Below are positions 22,571-61,151 of a stretch of DNA of 64,000 bases, one piece after another. Under the pieces are notes generated by a model. It was not told the origin of the DNA. It saw only the letters and a list, made by a program, of their open reading frames with translations, and made no database searches. Position 1 is the first letter of the stretch, and each line of letters begins with the position of its first letter. The stretch is from sequence record MW650886.1. The stretch is one strand, 5' to 3'. This DNA comes from Escherichia phage vB_EcoM-ZQ1. The translations under genes were made by a program, and so were the position numbers.

Positions 22571-22876
22571 GTGCAAGAACAATCCAAGTTTGGGGAAACC
22601 CCAGACAAGCGTTCCGGTGATAGCGACATGGATAGCGTGATTAACCATGTGAACAACTTCATTCGTCAGCAGGAGACTCCAACTCCTATCGGTGCAGCCA
22701 AGGCTCTTCATGATATACTGGTGAAGATCGGCCAGCGCTCTGAAGCAGATGAAATCTTCTATAACTTCGACGACCAGTATAAAGTGAAGTTTGAAGAGAA
22801 TGGCCACCCACAGGTTGCTGTGTTCTGGGCACCTTGGCTGGGTGGCGTGAGCTGGCGTATTGAGGATGCTGTGTAA
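22571..22876 (+). CDS. Hypothetical protein
   Basis: 101-aa ORF. Confidence 0.4.
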   Translation: MQEQSKFGETPDKRSGDSDMDSVINHVNNFIRQQETPTPIGAAKALHDILVKIGQRSEADEIFYNFDDQYKVKFEENGHPQVAVFWAPWLGGVSWRIEDAV

Positions 22877-24474
22877 TGGCTCGCTACCATTACACATATA
22901 GGATAACTCATGTCCCAACTGGGAGATTCTACGTCGGGATTCGGTCTTGTTCATGCACCCCCGAACAAGACCCCTATATGGGTTCTGGTGTTATCATCAA
23001 AAGGTTGTTGGAATCTCACCCCGCTTCTGAATTCTTAAAGACGATAATAGAAAAGTTTGAAACCAGGTTGGAGGCGTCCGACCTGGAGTCTATTATTGTT
23101 ACGGAAGAGTTACTGTTGGACCCATTATGCCTGAACCTGAAATTGGGAGGAGACAATTCTATCATACCAAACCAATTTAAGGCGGCGTTGGCCAGGACTG
23201 GCAAGAAATACAAATCTGGTATAAATCCTTGGGATGATCCAGAATACCGGGAACGTGTAATAAAATCAATAAAGGAGAACAGGGGTAATTCTCCCTACCC
23301 ATTCATGGTTTCAAATGGTTATTGGTGGGTTTGGAAGGACGCCCGTAGGATCTATGATAGATGGGTGAACAACGGCGGTACTGTGAATCCTACCTGTATG
23401 CCAAAACGAGGATGTGGTTACAAATCTATCGGATTGTGGTATTCTAAACTACTGGACACAGAGTATCGTAATCTAAAGGGCGATGAGAGCGTCTTTCGTA
23501 ATATGATCGCCATGTTTAAAGATGGTTGGATTCCCAAAGAGGACAAACGTTTTATGACTATGATAAATTCTAGCGTGACGCCGGGTATTGTCGTTATTCG
23601 CGGGACAAGTGGAACGGGAAAGGGGACTCGTGTCGTTCAATTCCTTGAGTGGTTGAGAACCAAATATGAGCCAGAACTCATAGAATACGAATTCGACAAG
23701 AAGATGATCCAGGTTGGGTTTTGGTTCAAGGAAATCAATCTGGTGTTCATCGGCAAGTATACAGTGTCCAACAAATCAGGTCTAGCATCATGGACTTCTA
23801 TGGATTTCATACACTCCACTCTCAAGTCTTCTGAGATGGCCAATTCGTTGTTGAAGTATCTCAAAATAAAGTTCAAAGATGCAACTATCATCTTGGAGGG
23901 GGAACCTATGATGCAGAGCCATCGATGGCGTCCCGAGTTCGTACACCAGGACTTGGGGTTCAACAACATGGCATTCATCTCCTTTATTTACCAAGCGCGG
24001 GAAGATTACGACAAACGTATCATCGGTCGTTCTGGTAAGGCGGCGAAGGACACTGGCTGGGGAAGAAATGAACAATACACCAAGGATCACGTCAAGATCA
24101 TGGGTGAGTACGCTTCCATCGGATACGAACTTGAACCAGACTCTCAGAATGAGTTGTTCATTGCAAAGGCAGCGAATGAAAATGGTGTAAAGGCAGTTGG
24201 TTGGAATATACTGAAATTCTTCGATGCCCCTCTCCACTTTATTGGTAGTTTTATTATAGATTTTGTTGGATTGAGAGGGTTGTCCAAAGAAGAGTTTCAA
24301 AAATATTGCGACACCACACCAATGTTGCGCAAGATTAAGGGTAGCAACCCTTTGGCGCACAGAGTCCCTGAGAAGCCGCAGAAGGCATCCAAAACTAAAA
24401 CCAAGGCGAGCGCCCAGCCAGAAGCAACGAAGGCAGCGTCGCGCTCTCTCCTTGACCTGATGAAGAAGGGGTGA
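22876..24474 (+). CDS. P-loop kinase with GIY-YIG-like N-terminal extension (candidate 5-hydroxymethyl-dU DNA kinase-type enzyme)
   Basis: N-terminus YHYTYRITHVPTGRFYVGIRS resembles a GIY-YIG nuclease motif; Walker A GIVVIRGTSGTGKGT at about residue 235, preceded by an internal ATG. Confidence 0.5.
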   Translation: MARYHYTYRITHVPTGRFYVGIRSCSCTPEQDPYMGSGVIIKRLLESHPASEFLKTIIEKFETRLEASDLESIIVTEELLLDPLCLNLKLGGDNSIIPNQFKAALARTGKKYKSGINPWDDPEYRERVIKSIKENRGNSPYPFMVSNGYWWVWKDARRIYDRWVNNGGTVNPTCMPKRGCGYKSIGLWYSKLLDTEYRNLKGDESVFRNMIAMFKDGWIPKEDKRFMTMINSSVTPGIVVIRGTSGTGKGTRVVQFLEWLRTKYEPELIEYEFDKKMIQVGFWFKEINLVFIGKYTVSNKSGLASWTSMDFIHSTLKSSEMANSLLKYLKIKFKDATIILEGEPMMQSHRWRPEFVHQDLGFNNMAFISFIYQAREDYDKRIIGRSGKAAKDTGWGRNEQYTKDHVKIMGEYASIGYELEPDSQNELFIAKAANENGVKAVGWNILKFFDAPLHFIGSFIIDFVGLRGLSKEEFQKYCDTTPMLRKIKGSNPLAHRVPEKPQKASKTKTKASAQPEATKAASRSLLDLMKKG

Positions 24475-24476
24475 TC

Positions 24477-24674
24477 ATGAAACGGTTGTCTAATTATCTG
24501 TTGTTCATTGGTCTGGTTATGGCAGCCGTTTCAATGTGTACTGCCCTAGCCTATCATTTCACCCCTCTGGACTTAACAACCTCAGAGAAGTTAAACGTGA
24601 CTGTGATGTACTGTATTGGCGCGGTGATGTCTATCGGCGCTGCTGGTTACAAAATATTCAAGGAACCAAAATGA
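24477..24674 (+). CDS. Small membrane protein
   Basis: 65 aa, two hydrophobic helices; SD GAAGGGG; track start 24471 is a GTG. Confidence 0.4.
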   Translation: MKRLSNYLLFIGLVMAAVSMCTALAYHFTPLDLTTSEKLNVTVMYCIGAVMSIGAAGYKIFKEPK

Positions 24675-25048
24675 AAATTCAAATTCCTCGCGATGCTGTG
24701 GCTGTTGCGATCGACTACACCGGAAACGCCAAGCACATTACTGCCGTGCGCCTGATTCCTGAAAAGAACTGCGTCATCCCTCAGTTCCAACTGAATGCCA
24801 ATCCGTCATCCAAAGACTTTGGCAAGTGGTTGCAGGCTGCTCCGTTCCGTACCCAGACGAACGCTCAGATGTTCATCTCGAGTAAGACCCACACCGCAGC
24901 CCGTCTGTGGTTCGTGACCGCTGACCGTCGCTTTGTCGATATGTGGGAACGTCCGATGGGGTTCGTGAAGCCGGAAGATATTCAGCTGGCTCCTGAGCCT
25001 GAAGCTGTGGCTCCTGAAGAGGAAGCGAAAGATGCATCATTTATCTAA
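24671..25048 (+). CDS. Hypothetical protein
   Basis: 125 aa; ATG overlaps the upstream stop (ATGA); the track ORF 24536..25048 has an unlikely upstream start. Confidence 0.45.
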   Translation: MKIQIPRDAVAVAIDYTGNAKHITAVRLIPEKNCVIPQFQLNANPSSKDFGKWLQAAPFRTQTNAQMFISSKTHTAARLWFVTADRRFVDMWERPMGFVKPEDIQLAPEPEAVAPEEEAKDASFI

Positions 25049-26267
25049 AATGCCGACGGGCTATACGCCTCCGGCTGAATGGAAGTACCCGATTGACCTG
25101 GCTGTTGATTATCGCAAGCCTGAGAATCGCATGTACCTGCTCAAGGCTTGGGTGGAGGCGCTGTCCTACACAGAAGAGCACAACCAGCAGATGCGTCTGA
25201 TGGACTATGCGATCGAAGTCACTGAAGGCATCAGCCTCGAACAGAAAGTCGAGCGCAAGATCTGGATGGCATTCCTGTGGGGTTGTTGCTATAACGCCGT
25301 CGGGCCGTGGACGATCTACAGTGAGTTCCCTGTGCCGCCTCAGTCTAAGGAAGATATGCAGCGCTTCTCTGATTGGTACAACCTGAACTTTGATCGCATG
25401 CGATTCGATACCGACTGTCGCTACCGCAAGTCCAAGATGATTCCGTGTGTTCAGTCCTATATTGACTGGCTGGCTGGCCGTACTCAATATGACGCTTTCC
25501 GTGGGATGTTGGTGTGCATCGATAAGACAGAACAATTCACCCAGCTGTGGGACACGGCGATGTCCTGGAAATACTTCGGTCGCCTGAGCGCCTGGAACTT
25601 CCTGGAAGCCCTGAACATGGTATTCGGAAACGAATACACCATTGACGTCCCTGGCTTCATGTTGCGTGATCGTGATGGAAGCGAGTCCAACCGTAATGGC
25701 GCGGCGTTCTTGTCCAACCGTGACGATTGGGTGACTAAACACGGGAAGAAAAAGATCAACGGTTGTCCTATCATGGATGAAGAGTGTGACATCCTTGAGG
25801 CCGACCTTGAGCAGGCGTTCCAGGATTGTGTGGCTGAGTTCGGGCACCTGACGTTCATCAACCGCCTGAACTTTGAAACCTCCGGCGCTTGTTGGCTGAA
25901 GAAATTCTTCCGACTGAAGAATACCCGTTACATCGGGTGGGACGCAGAGCGTACTTGGGATGAGATAGACTACATGGAACGCGTCTGGCCTGAATACTCC
26001 TGCGCAGCGCTCTGGGAAGCCCGTTCGCTCTGGCTGCCAGATACCCTGTTGTGCGAAAAGGCTCCTGTAGGGCACGTTCCAGGCGTCCAGAAGTGGAAGA
26101 TGCCTGTATTCTTTGAGACTGGTGTTCCTCTGCATATCTGGCACCTGCAAAAGGGTACGCGCTGGGAACCATCCGAGGTATGTACGAACCTGAAGATGCC
26201 TGTGCGCAAGGTTGAGGACAAGTCGAAGTCCAGCAGCGTCAACCTCATGGCACTCTTGAAACGCTGA
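25032..26267 (+). CDS. Hypothetical protein (candidate DNA base-modification enzyme by context)
   Basis: 411-aa ORF directly downstream of the kinase; SD GAGGAAG; the antisense 369-aa ORF 25041..26150 is judged a shadow. Confidence 0.45.
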   Translation: MHHLSKMPTGYTPPAEWKYPIDLAVDYRKPENRMYLLKAWVEALSYTEEHNQQMRLMDYAIEVTEGISLEQKVERKIWMAFLWGCCYNAVGPWTIYSEFPVPPQSKEDMQRFSDWYNLNFDRMRFDTDCRYRKSKMIPCVQSYIDWLAGRTQYDAFRGMLVCIDKTEQFTQLWDTAMSWKYFGRLSAWNFLEALNMVFGNEYTIDVPGFMLRDRDGSESNRNGAAFLSNRDDWVTKHGKKKINGCPIMDEECDILEADLEQAFQDCVAEFGHLTFINRLNFETSGACWLKKFFRLKNTRYIGWDAERTWDEIDYMERVWPEYSCAALWEARSLWLPDTLLCEKAPVGHVPGVQKWKMPVFFETGVPLHIWHLQKGTRWEPSEVCTNLKMPVRKVEDKSKSSSVNLMALLKR

Positions 26268-26301
26268 TATAAATATCCTCGCCTATAAAGCGAGGATATT
26301 A

Positions 26302-26472
26302 TCATGTTACAAGATCTGTTGGTTTATGCGCTTCCTGGCGCGGTTGTCGGCTTCATCGCTGGTGCTCTGGTCTTCCGTAAACACGCGCAAGATGGTGAAG
26401 TGATTGTTCAGAAGGGTAAGGACATCCTGGAACAAATCGAAGCCAAGCTGGAAGAGCTGAAGAAAAAGTAAT
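26302..26472 (+). CDS. Small single-TM protein (56 aa)
   Basis: MLQDLLVYALPGAVVGFIAGALVFRK... followed by a charged tail; preceded by a hairpin containing TATAAATA. Confidence 0.35.
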
Positions 26473-26497
26473 CTGACTGGGTTGCTTCCTTCAATAA

Positions 26498-26536
26498 AGG
26501 GGAATGGGTTATTATTAGCCCGTTCCCCTTTCTTTT
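26498..26536 (+). terminator. Intrinsic terminator
   Basis: Stem GGGGAATGGG / CCCGTTCCCC followed by TTTCTTTTT; preceded by TTCAATAAA. Confidence 0.6.
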
Positions 26537-26638
26537 TGCAAGAATATACATCATGGCAATGCAACGAATTGAAGATATGTCTCTACTCAACATGGAAGCG
26601 ACTTTTGGCGCTTCCGTTATCGTCATGGGAGAATCCAA

Positions 26639-26857
26639 ATGATCAAGAATACCCGAACAATGAAGCGCGCAATCGCTCACTGTGTCCATTCAGTGGCAAC
26701 TATTATGTTCCGCCACCACATCACATTTGATGAAGCACTGGACCCACAGTACCATGAAGAGCGTTGGGATTTGTTGTTAAAGAACGGCGCCAATCCTGAG
26801 CATAAAGATCAACTCCTTGGGATGACCAAGGCGCAGCTCGTCGGTGAATCCAAATGA
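26639..26857 (+). CDS. Hypothetical small protein
   Basis: 72-aa ORF whose stop overlaps the next start. Confidence 0.4.
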   Translation: MIKNTRTMKRAIAHCVHSVATIMFRHHITFDEALDPQYHEERWDLLLKNGANPEHKDQLLGMTKAQLVGESK

Positions 26858-27966
26858 TCTACCTCCTGTTTGGTGTGCCATTGGTACTGGCTATCCTGTT
26901 TGTGACCTACCACCGCAAGACCCATGAGCCGAAAGAGACTCTGATAGCGACCGCGATTGTAGTGGTGCTATCCTGTCTGATTCAGGCGGGGACTTATGCT
27001 GCGTTCTCCCTTGGCAGTTCAGGGGATATTGAGATCCTGAACGGGTACGTCACTGCAAAGGAGCGGAATGAGGTGAGCTGTGAGCATTCATATGAATGCA
27101 ACTGTTACTACACCACATCTTGTACAGGTTCAGGAAATAACCGATCTTGTACACAAACGCGTCATTGCAGCACATGCTATGAGCACTCTTATGACGTGGA
27201 CTGGGATGTGTTGACGACTGTCGGTAATTTGACGATTGACCGCATTGATCGTCGCGGCCTTGGTCAGCCCCCGCGCTGGGCGCAAGTTCAGATCGGCGAA
27301 CCCGCAGCCCGTGAGCATTCCTACATGAACTATGTGCTGGGTAACAAGGACTCTCTGTTCTCTCGCTCGGACCAGCAGTTTGCTGAGCGCTTCAAAGACA
27401 AGATTCCGAAGTACCCTGAGGTCTATGACTACTATCGCGTCACTCGTGTACTGAATGTGTCAGGGATGGACATTCCTGTTGATTACTGGAATGACTATCT
27501 GAACAATACTCTGAAAACATTAGGTGCTTCACGCCAGGTCAATATCGTCTGGGTTGTGACATCCGGTCAGCCAGTTGAATACTTCCAGGGCTTGGTCTAT
27601 GCTTGGGATGGTGGTAAAAAGAACGACGTTATCGTCGTGACCGACATCAGCAAAGATCTGAAGATCAACTGGGGCAAGAGCACTTCGTTCGCTGATGGTA
27701 TGCACAACCGTGAACTCCATTCTCGCAATGGCATGGCTCTCACAGGCCACGACATGGGCGTCGGTGTCATGGCTGATGTTGTCGCTAACATCACCAAAGG
27801 CTACAACCGCGTTGAGATGAAGGAAATGGAGTACCTGAAGTGGCGGGAACTCAAGACCTGGGAAGTTGTGGTTGTTGTTCTGCTGGGCTGCTTACCATTC
27901 ACCGCAATTTTCATATTGCAGCGAATGGAGTACAATGGTGGCCGTCGTTATCCGTTTAATTTTTAA
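26854..27966 (+). CDS. Cys-rich membrane protein (N- and C-terminal TM helices, large extracytoplasmic domain)
   Basis: TM helices at both ends; Cys cluster CEHSYECNCYYTTSCTGSGNNRSCTQTRHCSTCYEHSY; immediately upstream of the LemA-family gene. Confidence 0.5.
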   Translation: MIYLLFGVPLVLAILFVTYHRKTHEPKETLIATAIVVVLSCLIQAGTYAAFSLGSSGDIEILNGYVTAKERNEVSCEHSYECNCYYTTSCTGSGNNRSCTQTRHCSTCYEHSYDVDWDVLTTVGNLTIDRIDRRGLGQPPRWAQVQIGEPAAREHSYMNYVLGNKDSLFSRSDQQFAERFKDKIPKYPEVYDYYRVTRVLNVSGMDIPVDYWNDYLNNTLKTLGASRQVNIVWVVTSGQPVEYFQGLVYAWDGGKKNDVIVVTDISKDLKINWGKSTSFADGMHNRELHSRNGMALTGHDMGVGVMADVVANITKGYNRVEMKEMEYLKWRELKTWEVVVVVLLGCLPFTAIFILQRMEYNGGRRYPFNF

Positions 27967-27984
27967 TCAAAAGAGGAAGTAAGA

Positions 27985-28554
27985 ATGTCTCAATCTAAGG
28001 GTATTGCAACAGGTTGGATAATTGGTTTGGCTTTGCTGGGTGTAGTGATTCTCGGCATCGGTACAGTCATCAGCTACTTCAACGACTTCAACCGCACTGA
28101 GCAGCAGGTCAAGAAGTTCAACAAAGACTCCGAGAACTACCTGAGCAACTACACGCTCAAAGTTCAGGAGACGGCGCAGATTCCTGACATGTATAAAGAC
28201 GGCCTGAAGGAAGTGATCAAAGGCACGTTCGAAGGGCGTTATGGCGCTGATGGTTCCAAGGCCGTCATGCAGTGGATCCAGGAGCAGAATATTCAGTTCG
28301 ATTCCAGCCTGTACAAAGAGATCCAGGTGGTGATCAGTTCTGGGCGTGATGAATTCCGCATCAGCCAGACCAAGAAGCTGGATATCTGCACAATATACGA
28401 AACCAAGCTGGCTCAGTTCCCTGGTTCGTTGATTGCTGGCATGTTTGGCTACCCGCGTATCGACCTTGACAAGACCTGCCAGGTGGTGAGTGATACCCGT
28501 ACCCAGGCCGCGTTCGACGCTGGTATTCAGAAACCGATTAACTTCAAAGGCTGA
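27985..28554 (+). CDS. LemA-family membrane protein
   Basis: N-terminal TM helix, then LemA-like sequence ending in the characteristic motif KLAQFPGSLIAGMFGY. Confidence 0.6.
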   Translation: MSQSKGIATGWIIGLALLGVVILGIGTVISYFNDFNRTEQQVKKFNKDSENYLSNYTLKVQETAQIPDMYKDGLKEVIKGTFEGRYGADGSKAVMQWIQEQNIQFDSSLYKEIQVVISSGRDEFRISQTKKLDICTIYETKLAQFPGSLIAGMFGYPRIDLDKTCQVVSDTRTQAAFDAGIQKPINFKG

Positions 28555-28558
28555 TGTC

Positions 28559-28972
28559 ATGAGCGTGAAACTCACTGAATCCCTGACACTGGACCAACAG
28601 CAGGCTCTGTTGGATGAAGTAGTGATCTCTGCTATCAAGCAAGGGATCATCAAAGACGACATGTTGATTGACCGCCCCGAGATGATCCATCATCTGGTGG
28701 TGTGCCTGGGTGAGGCCAGCAACCCTCGCAAGAAGATCGTGCTGTTTACTGATGGTGTGATCCTTCCGAGCGGGAAATGTGCGTTCTTGGATGTGGTTGA
28801 ACATCCGAACACGAAAGGCAAAGAGGTCAAGACTTCTGTTCCGGTGACTCCATACACCGAGGGTGTTGACCAGCTGTCTTGGTTTGAGACAATCAACACC
28901 ATTTATGTGATGACACCGGACGGTAAACCAGTTCGGGATCTACGAGGCGGCAAAGTAGAATCTGAAGACTAA
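28559..28972 (+). CDS. Hypothetical protein
   Basis: 137 aa from the ATG just after the LemA stop; the track ORF starts earlier at 28490 overlapping LemA. Confidence 0.4.
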   Translation: MSVKLTESLTLDQQQALLDEVVISAIKQGIIKDDMLIDRPEMIHHLVVCLGEASNPRKKIVLFTDGVILPSGKCAFLDVVEHPNTKGKEVKTSVPVTPYTEGVDQLSWFETINTIYVMTPDGKPVRDLRGGKVESED

Positions 28973-28988
28973 TCGTTCTTCAATAAAA

Positions 28989-29021
28989 GGGGATAGGGTA
29001 TTATTGCTCTATCCCTTTTTC
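28989..29021 (+). terminator. Intrinsic terminator
   Basis: Hairpin GGGATAGGG...CTCTATCCC followed by TTTTTCG; preceded by TTCAATAAA. Confidence 0.5.
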
Positions 29022-30631: not shown

Positions 30632-33388
30632 ATGAAAATGCGCAAGTCCGAGCACTTTATCCGCTCGTCGTCTTCCATTCAGGGGCAGGCGTTCAACGTG
30701 AAGATGAACGATAAGATGTTTGAGACTCTGTTCTCATCATTGTATCGTTACAAAGAGGCTGCAGCCCTGCGCGAAACCGTCTGTAACGCCATCGACTCTC
30801 ATGGCATGCGTGATCGTATGCACCGTATGATAGCATCCCACTACGTGCCTCTCACTCCGCCTCCTGCCCGCCATAGCAAATACCTTGCACCGAAGGGTAA
30901 GCAGGTTGTTGTGCATCTACCTGATGACTTTGAGCCATGGCTGGAAATCCGTGATTACGGTATCGGTCTGCCACTTGAGAAGATCATTGGTGAGCCTATC
31001 CCAGCACAGGAAGATGAGGTGCTGCTGGAAGGCAATATGGTCGTGAAGGAAGACGAGATCCCTGACTCAGCTGAGGTCATCGGTGTGCCTGCGTTCTATA
31101 ATGGTGGTCTAGTGTTCCGTCGCGAAGATGGTGAAATCATTCGTACGCCTGGGTTGTATACCACTCTCTTCCACAGTACGAAGGAAGAAGATGATGATCA
31201 GATTGGGGCATTCGGTCTTGGCTCCAAATCACCATTTGCGGTATCGGATTCGTTCACTGTGGAAAGCCGCATGGACGGTAAACTCCATCGCTTCCTGATG
31301 TACCTGAATGCCAAGCGCATCCCGACTGTTGATCTGATCACCAAAGATCTTGAAACCCGTGATCCTAAGCCGGAAGACACCGATGAGTTCAACGGCATGA
31401 CGGTGAAGATCCCGGTGAAGAACGCTCGCTTCTCCGCATTCTCTGATGAGCTGGTTCGCCTTGGTCGTGTTATGCGCCCTGAACAACGTCCAATTGTTGA
31501 GAACGCTTCATACCGCTTCAGCTGGGAAGATATCAGTTATGATTTTAAGGTCAACAACACGTACATCCAGCCGAAAGGCCAGGGGAACACCCATTATGCT
31601 GTAATGGGTGGCGTGTCGTACCCGATTGACCTGAATCAGCTCGACCCAGACACTTCCTCTATCATGAGTAAGTTTCCATCGTCCTACACGTTCTTCGAAC
31701 TTGGCTCGCTGAACGTACCACCGTCGCGTGAAGACCTTTCATATGACGAATTCACGCGTGAGACGCTCTCTGAGGAGTTTAAAGAGACCGCCAATGCAAT
31801 CTTGAAAGAAAAGATGCGTGACCTGGAGCTGGCGTGTAAGCGCGGTCCTCTTGCCCTGTATATGGAGAAGGTAAAACTGAGTGAAATGTTCGGCAGTGGG
31901 TTCCGCAAGATGGTTGAAAAGGAATACCCGGCAGACAAGCGCTTTCATGATTCATATTACCGTTACCCGCTGCCTGTTGAGATTGATCGCGATTATGACC
32001 ATACCGCGCCGTTCAATGAATTGTCATCGCCGTTCTCTATGGAGATCTTCTATGACTGGGGTGAGTCCAGTAATTTGACCATTTCAGAAATCCAGAAGTG
32101 GATTGATCGCGGCCAGCATGTTACTGTGGTGATCGAAGATAGTGTTCGTGCTCGTAACCTGAAGATCAAGCAGCTGAAAGATACAGGGACGATAGTCATC
32201 GTGGCCAAGCCGAACACATCCTATGTCACCAAGCGCAACCAATCTAAGGACAACCCTGCGTTCAAGAATTCTCAGGCTCTCTATGATTTCTTTGAAACTT
32301 GGATTGGTAAAGAAGAAACGACGGTTGATTATCTGTGCTTCGCTGACAAGTTCGTCGATTGGCTGAGTGCGGTGCTGGAGCCTGCCGAAGTCAAGTTCAT
32401 GAACGAACTGACGTATGTCACACCCCCGGTCACCAAAGACCCTGGCCTATTTCCGTTCACGCGCAGCAACTTCGACATATACCAGTCTGAAGAACTGACG
32501 GGCGACCAGATCTCAGATATCATCAACAAGGGCGAGCGCATCGTCTATATTGAGGTGTCTGGTTATGAGTGTATCCATCAGGTGATGGGCAGAACGTTGA
32601 CCGCAGCTGCGGCGCGAGGCATCCGCGAGTCTCTCTACAAACATGCCGTTCACGCGGATGAAGATGGCAAGCCGGTGTATATCAGCGATATGTTGAACGT
32701 TCACAACCGAATCTTCTTGGCTCGCCGTAAATCCGTGCCAATGATGAAGAAGTTCCCAGAGGTCTTCATACCGATTGATGAGATTCTGAAGATTATGTTG
32801 GAGAATGCCAGGCCGATGCTGGAACGCCACAACGCGATACGGTTGCTGAAATCTCATCAGAGGCTTCACCTTGGTTCTAATCGCCTGAAATACGGGTGTC
32901 ATCTGGTAAAACAGGCGTTCGGTGAAGGGGAAGACGGGCGTTATAATCAGCTGGTTAATCGGTATAACCAAATGCTGGATTATGTTGACGATATCTTGGA
33001 CGAACAAACTATCCGCCATTATCAGGCGATGTCGAAGCGTAATGTTTCTCTTCATGAGGTTCGCCGCTTCAAACATTTCCAGGATACGATCAGCACTCTG
33101 AATCTGAATCTGTATACCAATGAGCGGGATGAAAGGGTGTTCCGCGCAGAACAACGCATGTTGCAAATCTTCAGTCACGCATCGGAAGTTCTGAGGATTC
33201 ATGGATTCGTGCCGTTTGATTTACTGAAGACGCCAACACGGAACGCGAAAAAGGCGAACCGCATGACCGTAGAACGTCATCGTGTTGTCCGGTTCTTGAA
33301 AGAGAATTACAAACCAAGCGCCCTGAACCCGATTGAAAATTCTTCGGATTACTTGGACGTTATTTCAAATTCCATCATCAGGGCATAA
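30632..33388 (+). CDS. rIIA: rIIA protein (GHKL-type ATPase domain)
   Basis: N-terminal motifs SLYRYKEAAALRETVCNAIDSH and IGAFGLGSKSPFAVSDSFTV match the rIIA / GHKL ATPase signature. Confidence 0.75.
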   Translation: MKMRKSEHFIRSSSSIQGQAFNVKMNDKMFETLFSSLYRYKEAAALRETVCNAIDSHGMRDRMHRMIASHYVPLTPPPARHSKYLAPKGKQVVVHLPDDFEPWLEIRDYGIGLPLEKIIGEPIPAQEDEVLLEGNMVVKEDEIPDSAEVIGVPAFYNGGLVFRREDGEIIRTPGLYTTLFHSTKEEDDDQIGAFGLGSKSPFAVSDSFTVESRMDGKLHRFLMYLNAKRIPTVDLITKDLETRDPKPEDTDEFNGMTVKIPVKNARFSAFSDELVRLGRVMRPEQRPIVENASYRFSWEDISYDFKVNNTYIQPKGQGNTHYAVMGGVSYPIDLNQLDPDTSSIMSKFPSSYTFFELGSLNVPPSREDLSYDEFTRETLSEEFKETANAILKEKMRDLELACKRGPLALYMEKVKLSEMFGSGFRKMVEKEYPADKRFHDSYYRYPLPVEIDRDYDHTAPFNELSSPFSMEIFYDWGESSNLTISEIQKWIDRGQHVTVVIEDSVRARNLKIKQLKDTGTIVIVAKPNTSYVTKRNQSKDNPAFKNSQALYDFFETWIGKEETTVDYLCFADKFVDWLSAVLEPAEVKFMNELTYVTPPVTKDPGLFPFTRSNFDIYQSEELTGDQISDIINKGERIVYIEVSGYECIHQVMGRTLTAAAARGIRESLYKHAVHADEDGKPVYISDMLNVHNRIFLARRKSVPMMKKFPEVFIPIDEILKIMLENARPMLERHNAIRLLKSHQRLHLGSNRLKYGCHLVKQAFGEGEDGRYNQLVNRYNQMLDYVDDILDEQTIRHYQAMSKRNVSLHEVRRFKHFQDTISTLNLNLYTNERDERVFRAEQRMLQIFSHASEVLRIHGFVPFDLLKTPTRNAKKANRMTVERHRVVRFLKENYKPSALNPIENSSDYLDVISNSIIRA

Positions 33389-33419
33389 TAGTCCTGTTAA
33401 CCAACGTGGGAACTACAAG

Positions 33420-34985
33420 ATGAACAAGATTGACGAAAAGATCCTGAAGCATTTGAAGGAAGGCAAAAGCCAGAGCGCAATTGCTACTCTGTTGGGCATA
33501 CCCCGCTCGACTGTACAACGTGTTTCCGACAAGGAAATCGGTGTTGACCCTACTTCGCTGAAATCTCTGACAACAGATCAGATCGCCAATATCCAAAGGG
33601 ATTCGGCGGCAGGTAATGTCAGCAATGCATTCTTGGCCAAGGTGTACGGTGTGTCCGCCAAGACCATTGCTCGCGCTCTGTTGGTCCGCATTACCGAGGA
33701 GGAAAACAAGGTAACTGTGATCTCTCCTATCAAGCCGGAAGAGCAGGAAGTATTCGAGGTCCAACCGGGCGGCACGGCCAAAGACAAAGATGGCACAGAA
33801 TGGTATGTTGGGGCATATCTGCCGAACCACAACAAGTATCTGTGTCTCACTAACGACGACAATTTCAAAGGGGCTTTCTTTGAAAAGTCTGAATTGACTC
33901 CTGTGGAAGGTGATAGTCGTGCTTTCGATGTTGAAGATATCGGCAAGATGGCAGAAATTTCTGTGGCGCTGTCAGAAGGTGCGGACAAAGTCCCGGGCAA
34001 CGTTGAAATCAGCGTTGTGGTTGACGGGGAAACCTATCCTATCCGTGGATCCTTGGATGCCCGTCGCCGTGTTGGTTACTTTGATGGCATCCTCGGTCGC
34101 ACCCTGCGCCTGGCTCTGTCTTCTGTAGAATTCGCCGTCGCTGTCAAAGACGTTGAAGAAGTGGCTGATGATAAGAAGACCAAGCAGGACTTCGGCGCGA
34201 AAGACCTGGACGTGTTCCTGAACGAACACCAGATCCTGATTCTTCCTGACAGCGTTGTTATCGCGATTGACGGCAAGCCGGAAACGATCACCACTTCACA
34301 CCCGGCCTATGACCGCATCGTACAGGCGATCAAAGACAAAGACGTGAAACTGGCATACTCGCTGATGCGCCCCCGTGAAGCCATCGCGAAGTACGCTGCT
34401 GGTCTAGTAGACGTGTCTGACAACCGTGTCCGCTGGTCCGGTCATGACATCACAGGCACATCCATCGCCAAGCGTGTACTGGCGCTGATGCTGAAGGGTG
34501 ACTTCCACAACCTGGACCGCATGGCGAAGTTTATGGACAAAATGTTCCAGAACCCGTCAGCTTCTCTGGTTCAGTCTGGGCGCATCTATGAGTTCATGGC
34601 GTACTCTGACATCGAAATTGACGACGACGGTGACATCATCCTCTACAAATCGGTGCGCGGCAACTACATGGACAAGCACAGCAACACGATCAGCAACGCC
34701 CCAGGCACTATCGTGCGGATGGCTCGCTCATTCGTGAACGACAACAACTCTGAACTGTGTTCATACGGTTTGCACGTTTGCTCCCTGGCCTATCTGAAAC
34801 AGTGCTTCGGTTCTGTTGGCCAGCGTGTCGTTCGCTGTAAGCTGAACCCGCGTGACATCGTGTCGGTCACCGATGATTTTGGTTCAAGCAAAATCCGCTG
34901 CTGTGAATACCTGGTGTTGGATGACTACACCGCTGAGTACAACCGCCAGCACAAGTCTATTGACGTGACAGGTCTGTACAAGTAA
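33420..34985 (+). CDS. rIIB: rIIB protein
   Basis: C-terminal region YKSVRGNYMDKHSNTISNAPG...CSYGLHVCSLAYLKQCFGSVGQRVVRCKLNPRDIVSV closely matches the conserved rIIB C-terminus; N-terminal HTH-like segment. Confidence 0.75.
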   Translation: MNKIDEKILKHLKEGKSQSAIATLLGIPRSTVQRVSDKEIGVDPTSLKSLTTDQIANIQRDSAAGNVSNAFLAKVYGVSAKTIARALLVRITEEENKVTVISPIKPEEQEVFEVQPGGTAKDKDGTEWYVGAYLPNHNKYLCLTNDDNFKGAFFEKSELTPVEGDSRAFDVEDIGKMAEISVALSEGADKVPGNVEISVVVDGETYPIRGSLDARRRVGYFDGILGRTLRLALSSVEFAVAVKDVEEVADDKKTKQDFGAKDLDVFLNEHQILILPDSVVIAIDGKPETITTSHPAYDRIVQAIKDKDVKLAYSLMRPREAIAKYAAGLVDVSDNRVRWSGHDITGTSIAKRVLALMLKGDFHNLDRMAKFMDKMFQNPSASLVQSGRIYEFMAYSDIEIDDDGDIILYKSVRGNYMDKHSNTISNAPGTIVRMARSFVNDNNSELCSYGLHVCSLAYLKQCFGSVGQRVVRCKLNPRDIVSVTDDFGSSKIRCCEYLVLDDYTAEYNRQHKSIDVTGLYK

Positions 34986-61087: not shown

Positions 61088-61151
61088 GATGTGCTCCTGG
61101 TTTATATTCAGATCATAAAATTATACCCTATGACCCGCTTTATTGAATTAC

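Follow-up and report, generated by a model that had tools for sequence, protein, structure and literature searches.

A putative LemA–TPM membrane protein pair in Escherichia phage vB_EcoM-ZQ1 and other large phages

Why should a large virulent phage carry a version of a membrane protein pair that is known from bacterial chromosomes? The question is raised by two adjacent genes in a 64,000-nucleotide stretch of Escherichia phage vB_EcoM-ZQ1 (sequence record MW650886.1; the whole stretch is referred to here as the window), which belongs to a ViI-like myovirus in the Aglimvirinae subfamily of the Ackermannviridae. Few uncharacterised membrane proteins of bacteria are as widespread as LemA and TPM proteins (one search returned at least 8,000 LemA matches), and the mechanism of the bacterial LemA–TPM pair is not known. 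An earlier note on the window had read the second of the two genes as encoding a LemA-family protein and the first as encoding its cysteine-rich membrane partner, and had suggested a part in envelope remodelling, superinfection exclusion or lysis timing; the list of open reading frames (ORFs) places both genes exactly where that note had put them (Table 1). We find that the smaller protein is probably a diverged relative of LemA, that its partner has a predicted TPM fold and that the two form a self-contained two-gene cassette in about 500 sequenced large phages. The structural part of the first reading is supported, and no surprising mechanism is demonstrated; we consider it very likely that the identity, pairing and location of the two proteins are as described here. 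The LemA name already stands on the small protein in a few records (phages 121Q and RPN242, and a UniRef entry for Klebsiella phage May), and we found the TPM identity of the partner, the conserved phage LemA–TPM cassette and the breadth of its distribution described nowhere.

Identity of the two proteins

Both ORFs are clearly coding, with hundreds of homologues at 30–97% identity and strong PHROG matches. The 189-amino-acid protein bears the LemA signature that had been noticed in its sequence: it has a single N-terminal membrane helix, and its motif FPGSLIAGMFGY at amino acids 145-156 (nucleotides 28417-28452) lines up with the invariant residues F162, P163, A168, G172 and F173 of a LemA alignment (F-P-x4-A-x3-G-F), a motif that is only partially conserved across the wider phage family. 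The profile search proposed in the earlier note bore out the assignment at the level of the family. When the alignment of 53 phage sequences was compared, using hhalign, with a reference alignment of 27 proteins that carry the Pfam LemA domain (PF04011), the two matched over 145 columns with a probability of 96.5% and an E value of 7.2e-10. The family profile also matched the sequence of the LemA crystal structure 2ETD (E = 3.2e-4, positions 32-161), and LemA is the Pfam family that more relatives match, if weakly, than any other (10 of 53).

Several results count against this assignment. Taken singly, the window protein scores 13.7 bits against PF04011 (E = 0.056; amino acids 125-158 covered) where the cut-off is 26.2; none of about 100 database relatives has a precomputed PF04011 match, and the best score seen among relatives, 22.3 bits, is still under the cut-off. 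The AlphaFold2 model is all-helical (predicted local distance difference test score (pLDDT) of 82.9), and 2ETD is its top Protein Data Bank (PDB) match in Foldseek, but the match is not significant (E = 0.3, probability 0.66, template modelling score 0.32–0.39), so the homology rests on the hhalign comparison. Single-sequence searches of NCBIfam and of the PDB (phmmer) yielded nothing usable. As judged from sequence, the resemblance to LemA exceeds chance at the profile level only, and the protein is best regarded as a diverged member of the LemA superfamily that falls below the Pfam family threshold. Among the defence systems in PADLOC, it matches LeoBC alone (E = 2.4e-4, 18 bits), within the membrane-helix region, a match that we dismiss as membrane-helix similarity; the partner has no PADLOC match.

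The 370-amino-acid partner is named by no sequence library that we searched (among them Pfam, PHROG, NCBIfam, PADLOC and, with phmmer, the PDB). Its fold was recognized from an AlphaFold model built with 65 relatives (pLDDT 91, predicted template modelling score 0.81), for which the top Foldseek match, with a probability of 1.00, is LMTP1, a protein identified as a PF04536 (TPM) protein (preprint 10.1101/2024.10.28.620569). The sequences of the relatives point the same way: weak PF04536 matches occur in 16 of the 65 (best E = 1.8e-4), far more than for any other family, and the most conserved motif of the partner family, W-x-GGKKND, falls on the canonical TPM core G-x-K-x-N-G-V-L. An hhalign comparison of the partner family with an alignment of two bacterial TPM proteins (E = 0.014, probability 3%) was used solely to place this motif. 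On the other side of the balance, the window partner itself has no PF04536 match at E ≤ 1. The model indicates that the partner is a TPM-fold membrane protein, and PHROG 2087, labelled ‘hypothetical’, can be described in these terms. The earlier note had offered two candidate families for the partner. The TPM-like one stands; DUF2207 (PF09972) is rejected, as the window protein has no match to it at E ≤ 1, and it is absent among the first 25 listed of the 63 Pfam families to which the 65 relatives have matches at that threshold. Where that note had allowed that the partner might prove unrelated to LemA-associated families, the predicted fold is the one found in the bacterial module.

Before its TPM domain, the partner has a domain of long beta hairpins that contains seven cysteines (residues 76, 82, 84, 90, 99, 105 and 108), each conserved in 82–100% of the 65 relatives, together with conserved His78 and His111. 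Foldseek gives only low-probability matches for this domain, to the FliF beta-collar and to the stems of pore-forming toxins. A metal site formed by Cys76, Cys82 and Cys108 with His78 and His111 is speculation.

The earlier note had also likened the arrangement to bacterial LemA two-gene modules, and this holds in part. In both bacteria checked, Thermotoga (the source of 2ETD) and Neobacillus, a LemA gene is followed without a gap by a TPM_phosphatase gene. The phage pair resembles the bacterial one (for example, TM0961 of Thermotoga maritima, PDB 2ETD, and its neighbour) in having a LemA protein that spans the membrane once and bears a helical ectodomain and a C-terminal F-P...G-F motif, a partner in which a TPM domain is followed by a membrane helix, and adjacent genes that are probably co-translated (in the window, 18 nucleotides separate them). 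It differs in that both phage proteins fall under the Pfam thresholds and carry co-varying cysteine pairs, and in that the phage partner is elaborated: two N-terminal membrane helices and a beta domain of about 100 amino acids with the seven conserved cysteines are added, and the Gly-rich tail of bacterial TPM proteins is missing. The gene order is also reversed, with the partner first in the phage.

Other relatives are more distant. The TPM-domain proteins TLP18.3, Psb32, LMTP1 and Bacillus subtilis YdjH share just 11–16% identity with the phage protein and have no fused cysteine-rich beta domain. MamQ, compared by description, shares a LemA-type fold, a single N-terminal membrane anchor and a domain on the non-cytoplasmic side, and differs in acting within the magnetosome island; its deletion abolishes magnetosome formation, and no other LemA relative is known to have a clear phenotype (PMC3905215). 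A text search of the literature, limited in extent, returned no study of phage LemA and none of the function of the bacterial LemA–TPM pair.

Distribution and mobility of the pair

In tblastn searches, 501 phage records had a match to the LemA-like protein and 487 a match to the partner. The counts for the two proteins agree closely by host genus: Salmonella 166 and 168, Escherichia 62 and 62, Klebsiella 54 and 55, Erwinia 29 and 29, Aeromonas 25 and 26, Acinetobacter 23 and 23, Serratia 22 and 22, Vibrio 22 and 22, and Dickeya 19 and 19. All named host genera in the top-ten lists are Gram-negative, and almost all of the records listed are longer than 100 kb; three are shorter and are presumably partial assemblies. 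The pair is core in Ackermannviridae and occurs across many unrelated phage lineages.

The partner lies directly upstream of the LemA-like gene in all 11 loci examined, which include three further genera of Ackermannviridae, Vibrio phage ICP1, an Acinetobacter Saclayvirus, the Escherichia coli jumbo phage 121Q, Sinorhizobium phage phiM19, a metagenomic contig and a 938-kb Vibrio replicon. From one locus to the next, the pair is flanked by unrelated genes. A conserved third gene was considered and rejected, as the flanks in ICP1, the Acinetobacter phage, 121Q and phiM19 are unrelated to one another (PinA-like, exoribonuclease-like, TelA and resolvase genes). Two genes upstream of the pair, phage 121Q encodes a ‘toxic anion resistance’ protein of the TelA family (PF05816, E = 2e-37; L009 893-2029); this is another family associated with membrane stress. 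In one JGI metagenome contig, the two proteins are fused in a single ORF of 553 amino acids (P0244; L005 1012-2673), in which residues 1 to about 370 are homologous to the partner and residues 371-552 to the LemA-like protein; the fusion occurs on this single contig, in which a stop codon could have been lost through a sequencing or assembly artefact.

The ICP1 isolates show how the pair may move. In isolate 2017_DRC_82, the pair lies within a 2.6-kb segment (L007 2872-5475) that is cleanly placed between the counterparts of reference ORF40 and ORF39 and that contains the partner gene, the LemA-like gene, a gene for a 251-amino-acid resolvase-domain protein and a small ORF; the reference ICP1 genome lacks this segment. 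It follows that the two genes move together and that ICP1 can do without them; the serine-recombinase-like gene beside them might be linked to the mobility of the segment. Presence and absence in ICP1, a tractable phage, together with core status in Ackermannviridae, provide a compact system for deletion, expression in trans and natural comparisons, and make phages a practical route to the function of the bacterial pair.

Membrane location, timing and candidate functions

Where in the cell the two proteins act is suggested by hydropathy, charge and the pattern of cysteines. In the partner, three membrane helices flank a domain of about 280 amino acids that includes the cysteine-rich region; the basic RKTHEPK loop and the basic tail are likely to be cytoplasmic, with the large domain outside, as the earlier note had held. 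The short N terminus of the LemA-like protein is likely to be inside and its helical domain outside, and an extracytoplasmic C-terminal domain has been predicted for LemA in the literature (PMC3905215). Cys135 and Cys165 of the LemA-like protein are both present in 27 of its 53 relatives, both absent in 26 and never found singly; in the 65 relatives of the partner, the corresponding counts are 53, 12 and 0 for Cys84 and Cys105, and 59, 4 and 2 for Cys90 and Cys99. Such co-variation points to an oxidising compartment, and thus to a periplasmic position of both large domains; shared ancestry can inflate counts of this kind, so the topology is given here as a prediction. The partner pairs are symmetric around the predicted hairpin turn (84 + 105 = 90 + 99 = 189), from which we infer that they form cross-strand disulfides.

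This location bears on a label that PHROG and RefSeq attach to the LemA-like protein. PHROG 1383 is annotated as ‘virion structural protein’, and many RefSeq records, those of Vi01, LIMEstone1, Ag3 and Erwinia jumbo phages among them, use these words too, as would fit a protein packaged in the particle. The mass-spectrometry table of the LIMEstone1 virion lists 39 proteins, among which ORF194 and ORF195 do not appear (PMC3296691). These two ORFs are the orthologues of the pair, and the RefSeq record of LIMEstone1 still has the virion label. One database homologue of the LemA-like protein is even called ‘major capsid protein’, a sign of loosely spread labels. We therefore reject the label as unsupported by the one virion proteome checked, and the annotation of PHROG 1383 should be corrected. 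The gene lies outside the structural block, and a membrane anchor and predicted periplasmic disulfides are ill-suited to a tailed-phage particle; a protein anchored in the inner membrane is unlikely to be a part of a capsid or tail, and we regard a virion component as very improbable.

The time of expression is suggested by gene position. On the same strand as the pair, genes for DNA polymerase, a 5-hydroxymethyldeoxyuridine (5-hmdU) DNA kinase and an amino-acid:DNA transferase lie upstream, and rIIA and rIIB (30632-34985) and a topoisomerase gene lie downstream. The rIIA (918 amino acids) and rIIB (550 amino acids) homologues, identified through the annotation of phage AV101, are about 2 kb from the pair. 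In the Acinetobacter phage the pair lies between genes for ribonucleotide reductase and thymidylate synthase/dihydrofolate reductase, and in phiM19 it is near a primase gene. The ICP1 cassette sits within an operon, with gp39 and gp40 as its neighbours, and RNA sequencing classed both of these and nearly every gene from gp8 to gp52 as Early (gp26 is unassigned and gp27 is middle-early; 10.1101/2020.03.12.988147, S3 table); as the strain lineage that was sequenced lacks the pair, the timing for ICP1 is positional only. These positions suggest expression early or mid-infection. A sequence scan found no convincing sigma-70 or T4-late promoter for the operon of the pair. An exact T4-type late promoter, TATAAATA, occurs at 26268, one of three in the window and 29 nucleotides upstream of a 55-amino-acid ORF, and a strong terminator stands between that gene and the pair.

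This layout, and the topology of the LemA-like protein, are relevant to lysis timing, in which the pair would act as a holin regulator or a spanin-like component. In its type II topology, its size and its helical periplasmic domain, the LemA-like protein resembles the inner-membrane subunit of two-component (Rz/Rz1-type) spanins, the partner gene goes by the name ‘host lysis protein’ in the record of Vi01, and the late-promoter-driven gene just upstream encodes a small membrane protein. That gene is separated from the pair by the strong terminator, however, and the pair lies amid early genes in ICP1 and nucleotide-metabolism genes elsewhere. No endolysin or holin gene is annotated within ±20 kb of the pair in AV101. 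The Vi01 name is accompanied by the product ‘conserved uncharacterised protein’, and we found no evidence in support of it. A spanin would also need a lipoprotein partner: no ORF of at least 40 amino acids on the plus strand overlaps the LemA-like gene, barring an upstream extension of the 137-amino-acid gene that follows it, and the 137-amino-acid protein, read by eye, has no N-terminal signal or lipobox. With no lipoprotein partner, no lysis-cassette position and clear homology to LemA instead of to spanins, we reject the spanin reading and consider lysis control in general to be improbable.

We propose instead, with a probability of roughly 0.4, that the pair conditions or stabilises the host inner membrane during infection. 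The proposal is drawn from relatives, among them MamQ and a TPM-like subunit that is present in a respiratory supercomplex. The host inner membrane would anchor both proteins, and disulfides would stabilise the large domains that they expose to the periplasm. The LemA-like protein would cross the membrane once and carry a helical ectodomain; the partner would be held by three membrane helices and would display a disulfide-stapled beta domain and a TPM domain. The two would most likely form one complex, made early or mid-infection, that supports the inner membrane and its energy-transducing protein complexes from the periplasmic face through a long and taxing infection. The envelope could then remain whole and energised during the shut-off of host gene expression and up to programmed lysis.

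Several observations weigh against membrane maintenance as the function of the pair. The reversed gene order sets it apart from the bacterial module, and such old, diverged and elaborated phage proteins may have a phage-specific role unlike housekeeping. The pairing is broken in one lineage, the only such case seen: in Lak megaphages (Prevotella phage Lak-B3, L014 3336-3881), a clear LemA-like gene (profile E = 1e-46) lies downstream of a ClpX-like ATPase gene, and no recognisable partner homologue occurs within 3.5 kb of it. The operon was called without a promoter, and its timing was read from position. That ICP1 is viable without the cassette is as easily explained by exclusion, anti-defence or another role of a conditional or competitive kind as by maintenance, and cassette behaviour, dispensability in ICP1 and early position, taken together, fit exclusion or counter-defence about as well.

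The main rival to membrane maintenance is superinfection exclusion, or sealing of the envelope, in which an early periplasmic complex would alter the face of the inner membrane and block DNA delivery or wall damage by later phages. The T4 proteins Imm and Sp are early-expressed envelope proteins that mediate superinfection exclusion, and the pair would be their functional analogue, comparable in possible role only, as early envelope proteins of a large virulent phage; no relationship of sequence or fold to them was detected, and the PHROG families differ. An inner-membrane anchored pair that faces the periplasm and is encoded among early genes would be suitably placed, the ICP1 cassette is dispensable and exchangeable, and the occurrence in many unrelated large virulent phages with variable flanks is as expected for a competitive accessory trait. 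Homology to known exclusion proteins is absent, though: the PHROG families are of unknown function or labelled ‘structural’, PADLOC returned only the weak match to a membrane-helix region, and the homologous pair in bacteria, a chromosomal module of wide occurrence, has no link to phage entry. We consider exclusion unlikely, if less so than the alternatives that involve lysis or the virion.

The rIIA and rIIB genes raise a further possibility, that the complex guards the inner membrane against depolarisation or permeabilisation by abortive-infection effectors of the host, much as has been proposed for T4 rII against Rex. The pair is membrane-located, lies in the same early block as rIIA/rIIB and is an accessory cassette in ICP1, a phage under strong defence pressure. 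The argument is entirely one of analogy, however; the proximity to rII is confined to Ackermannviridae, and a periplasmic orientation is not obviously fit to block effectors at the cytoplasmic face. We would give counter-defence little credence.

A bolder and doubtful extension is that large virulent phages exchange the pair horizontally as an ‘envelope guardian’ that has so far escaped recognition. The two proteins would be made early and would assemble into an oligomeric machine that faces the periplasm, perhaps as a ring of the disulfide-stapled beta hairpins of the partner, which faintly match the FliF beta-collar and pore-toxin stems in Foldseek. By sealing or remodelling the inner membrane once the genome has entered, the machine would block superinfecting phages or membrane-targeting host defences. 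An account of how it works would also reveal the role of the LemA–TPM pair in bacteria and archaea.

Operon layout and neighbouring elements

The pair belongs to a short operon of five ORFs between two hairpin terminators (Table 1), both of which have equivalents annotated in the LIMEstone1 record, around its ORF192-196. Over nucleotides 26600-28972, the window shares 97% identity with Escherichia phage YX22 and 88–96% with Agtrevirus and Limestonevirus genomes. The two small upstream ORFs are linked to the partner gene through ATGA start/stop overlaps and are probably on the same transcript; they are not kept with the pair in other lineages (the ICP1, Acinetobacter, 121Q and phiM19 loci have different flanks). 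The last gene of the operon, which encodes the 137-amino-acid protein, matched no Pfam family and is likewise not kept with the pair outside Ackermannviridae.

Table 1 Features of the LemA–TPM operon in the window (domain calls are predictions)
Feature	Position	Strand	Basis
Strong hairpin terminator, 16-bp stem and T run, upstream operon edge	26496..26531	+	Terminator scan, sequence
Two small upstream ORFs (26553-26642, 26639-26857)	26553..26857	+	ORF list, sequence; PHROG 16350/5047
Partner ORF, 370 amino acids, PHROG 2087	26854..27966	+	ORF list; PHROG E = 6e-163
Partner, two N-terminal membrane helices (amino acids 1-21, 27-54) with short basic loop RKTHEPK	26854..27015	+	Hydropathy, charge; AlphaFold2 helices 2-20, 26-54
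Partner, Cys-rich beta domain (amino acids ~55-160), long beta hairpins	27016..27333	+	AlphaFold2 strands 57-74, 79-91, 98-109, 114-121
Partner, TPM-fold domain (amino acids ~196-320), alpha/beta, W-x-GGKKND motif at amino acids 251-258	27439..27813	+	
Partner, C-terminal membrane helix (amino acids 333-358), then short basic tail	27850..27927	+	Hydropathy; AlphaFold2 helix 335-361
LemA-like ORF, 189 amino acids, PHROG 1383 (label ‘virion structural protein’)	27985..28554	+	ORF list; PHROG E = 6.6e-86
LemA-like protein, single N-terminal membrane helix (amino acids 4-35)	27994..28089	+	Hydropathy; AlphaFold2 helix from amino acid 8
LemA-like protein, LemA-homologous region (amino acids 17-162)	28033..28470	+	hhalign aligned range
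Downstream ORF, 137 amino acids, PHROG 4236 (E = 7.9e-75), last operon gene	28559..28972	+	
Imperfect hairpin and T run ending the operon	28985..29020	+	Sequence, motif search

At the site of the second small ORF (26639-26857), a protein of 128 amino acids is annotated in RPN242 and Vi01, and a 72-amino-acid ORF is found in LIMEstone1, AV101 and the window. The 72-amino-acid product matches the C-terminal half alone of PHROG 5047 (positions 58-125 of 128), and the window phage and some of its relatives therefore have a shortened or rearranged version. Opposite the LemA-like gene, an antisense ORF of 231 amino acids (27967-28662, minus strand) is probably not a gene, because the plus-strand frame is the conserved one.

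The two hairpins that flank the operon have the same loop, TATTAT, and the same lead-in, TTCAATAAA(A)GGGG. The TTCAATAAA(A)GGGG motif occurs four times in the window with up to two mismatches, at 26490-26503, 28979-28992, 23265-23278 and, on the minus strand, 61134-61147, compared with 0.45 occurrences expected. In LIMEstone1, the counterpart of the downstream hairpin contains an annotated putative −10 box, and hairpins of the TTCAATAAA type may for this reason be combined terminator and promoter elements.

Upstream of the operon, the product of the 55-amino-acid ORF at 26304-26471 (PHROG 3879) has a membrane helix at its N terminus and a charged helix at its C terminus, and the ORF is directly followed by the terminator with the 16-bp stem; LIMEstone1 annotates the same layout of promoter, ORF and terminator for its ORF191. 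Positions 26268-26531 look like a self-contained late unit, and its product could be a small lysis-related membrane protein.

Further upstream, the region 22876-26267 encodes the 5-hmdU DNA kinase (PF18747) and the amino-acid:DNA transferase (PF18724, E = 3e-59), which belong to the thymidine hypermodification pathway that is typical of ViI-like phages. In the ORF at 22876-24474 (532 amino acids), a SegD-like homing endonuclease (amino acids 1-230) is joined to the kinase (amino acids 236-531); the two are separate, overlapping genes in RPN242 and AV101, and PHROG 15209 (497 amino acids) shows that the fused form also occurs elsewhere.

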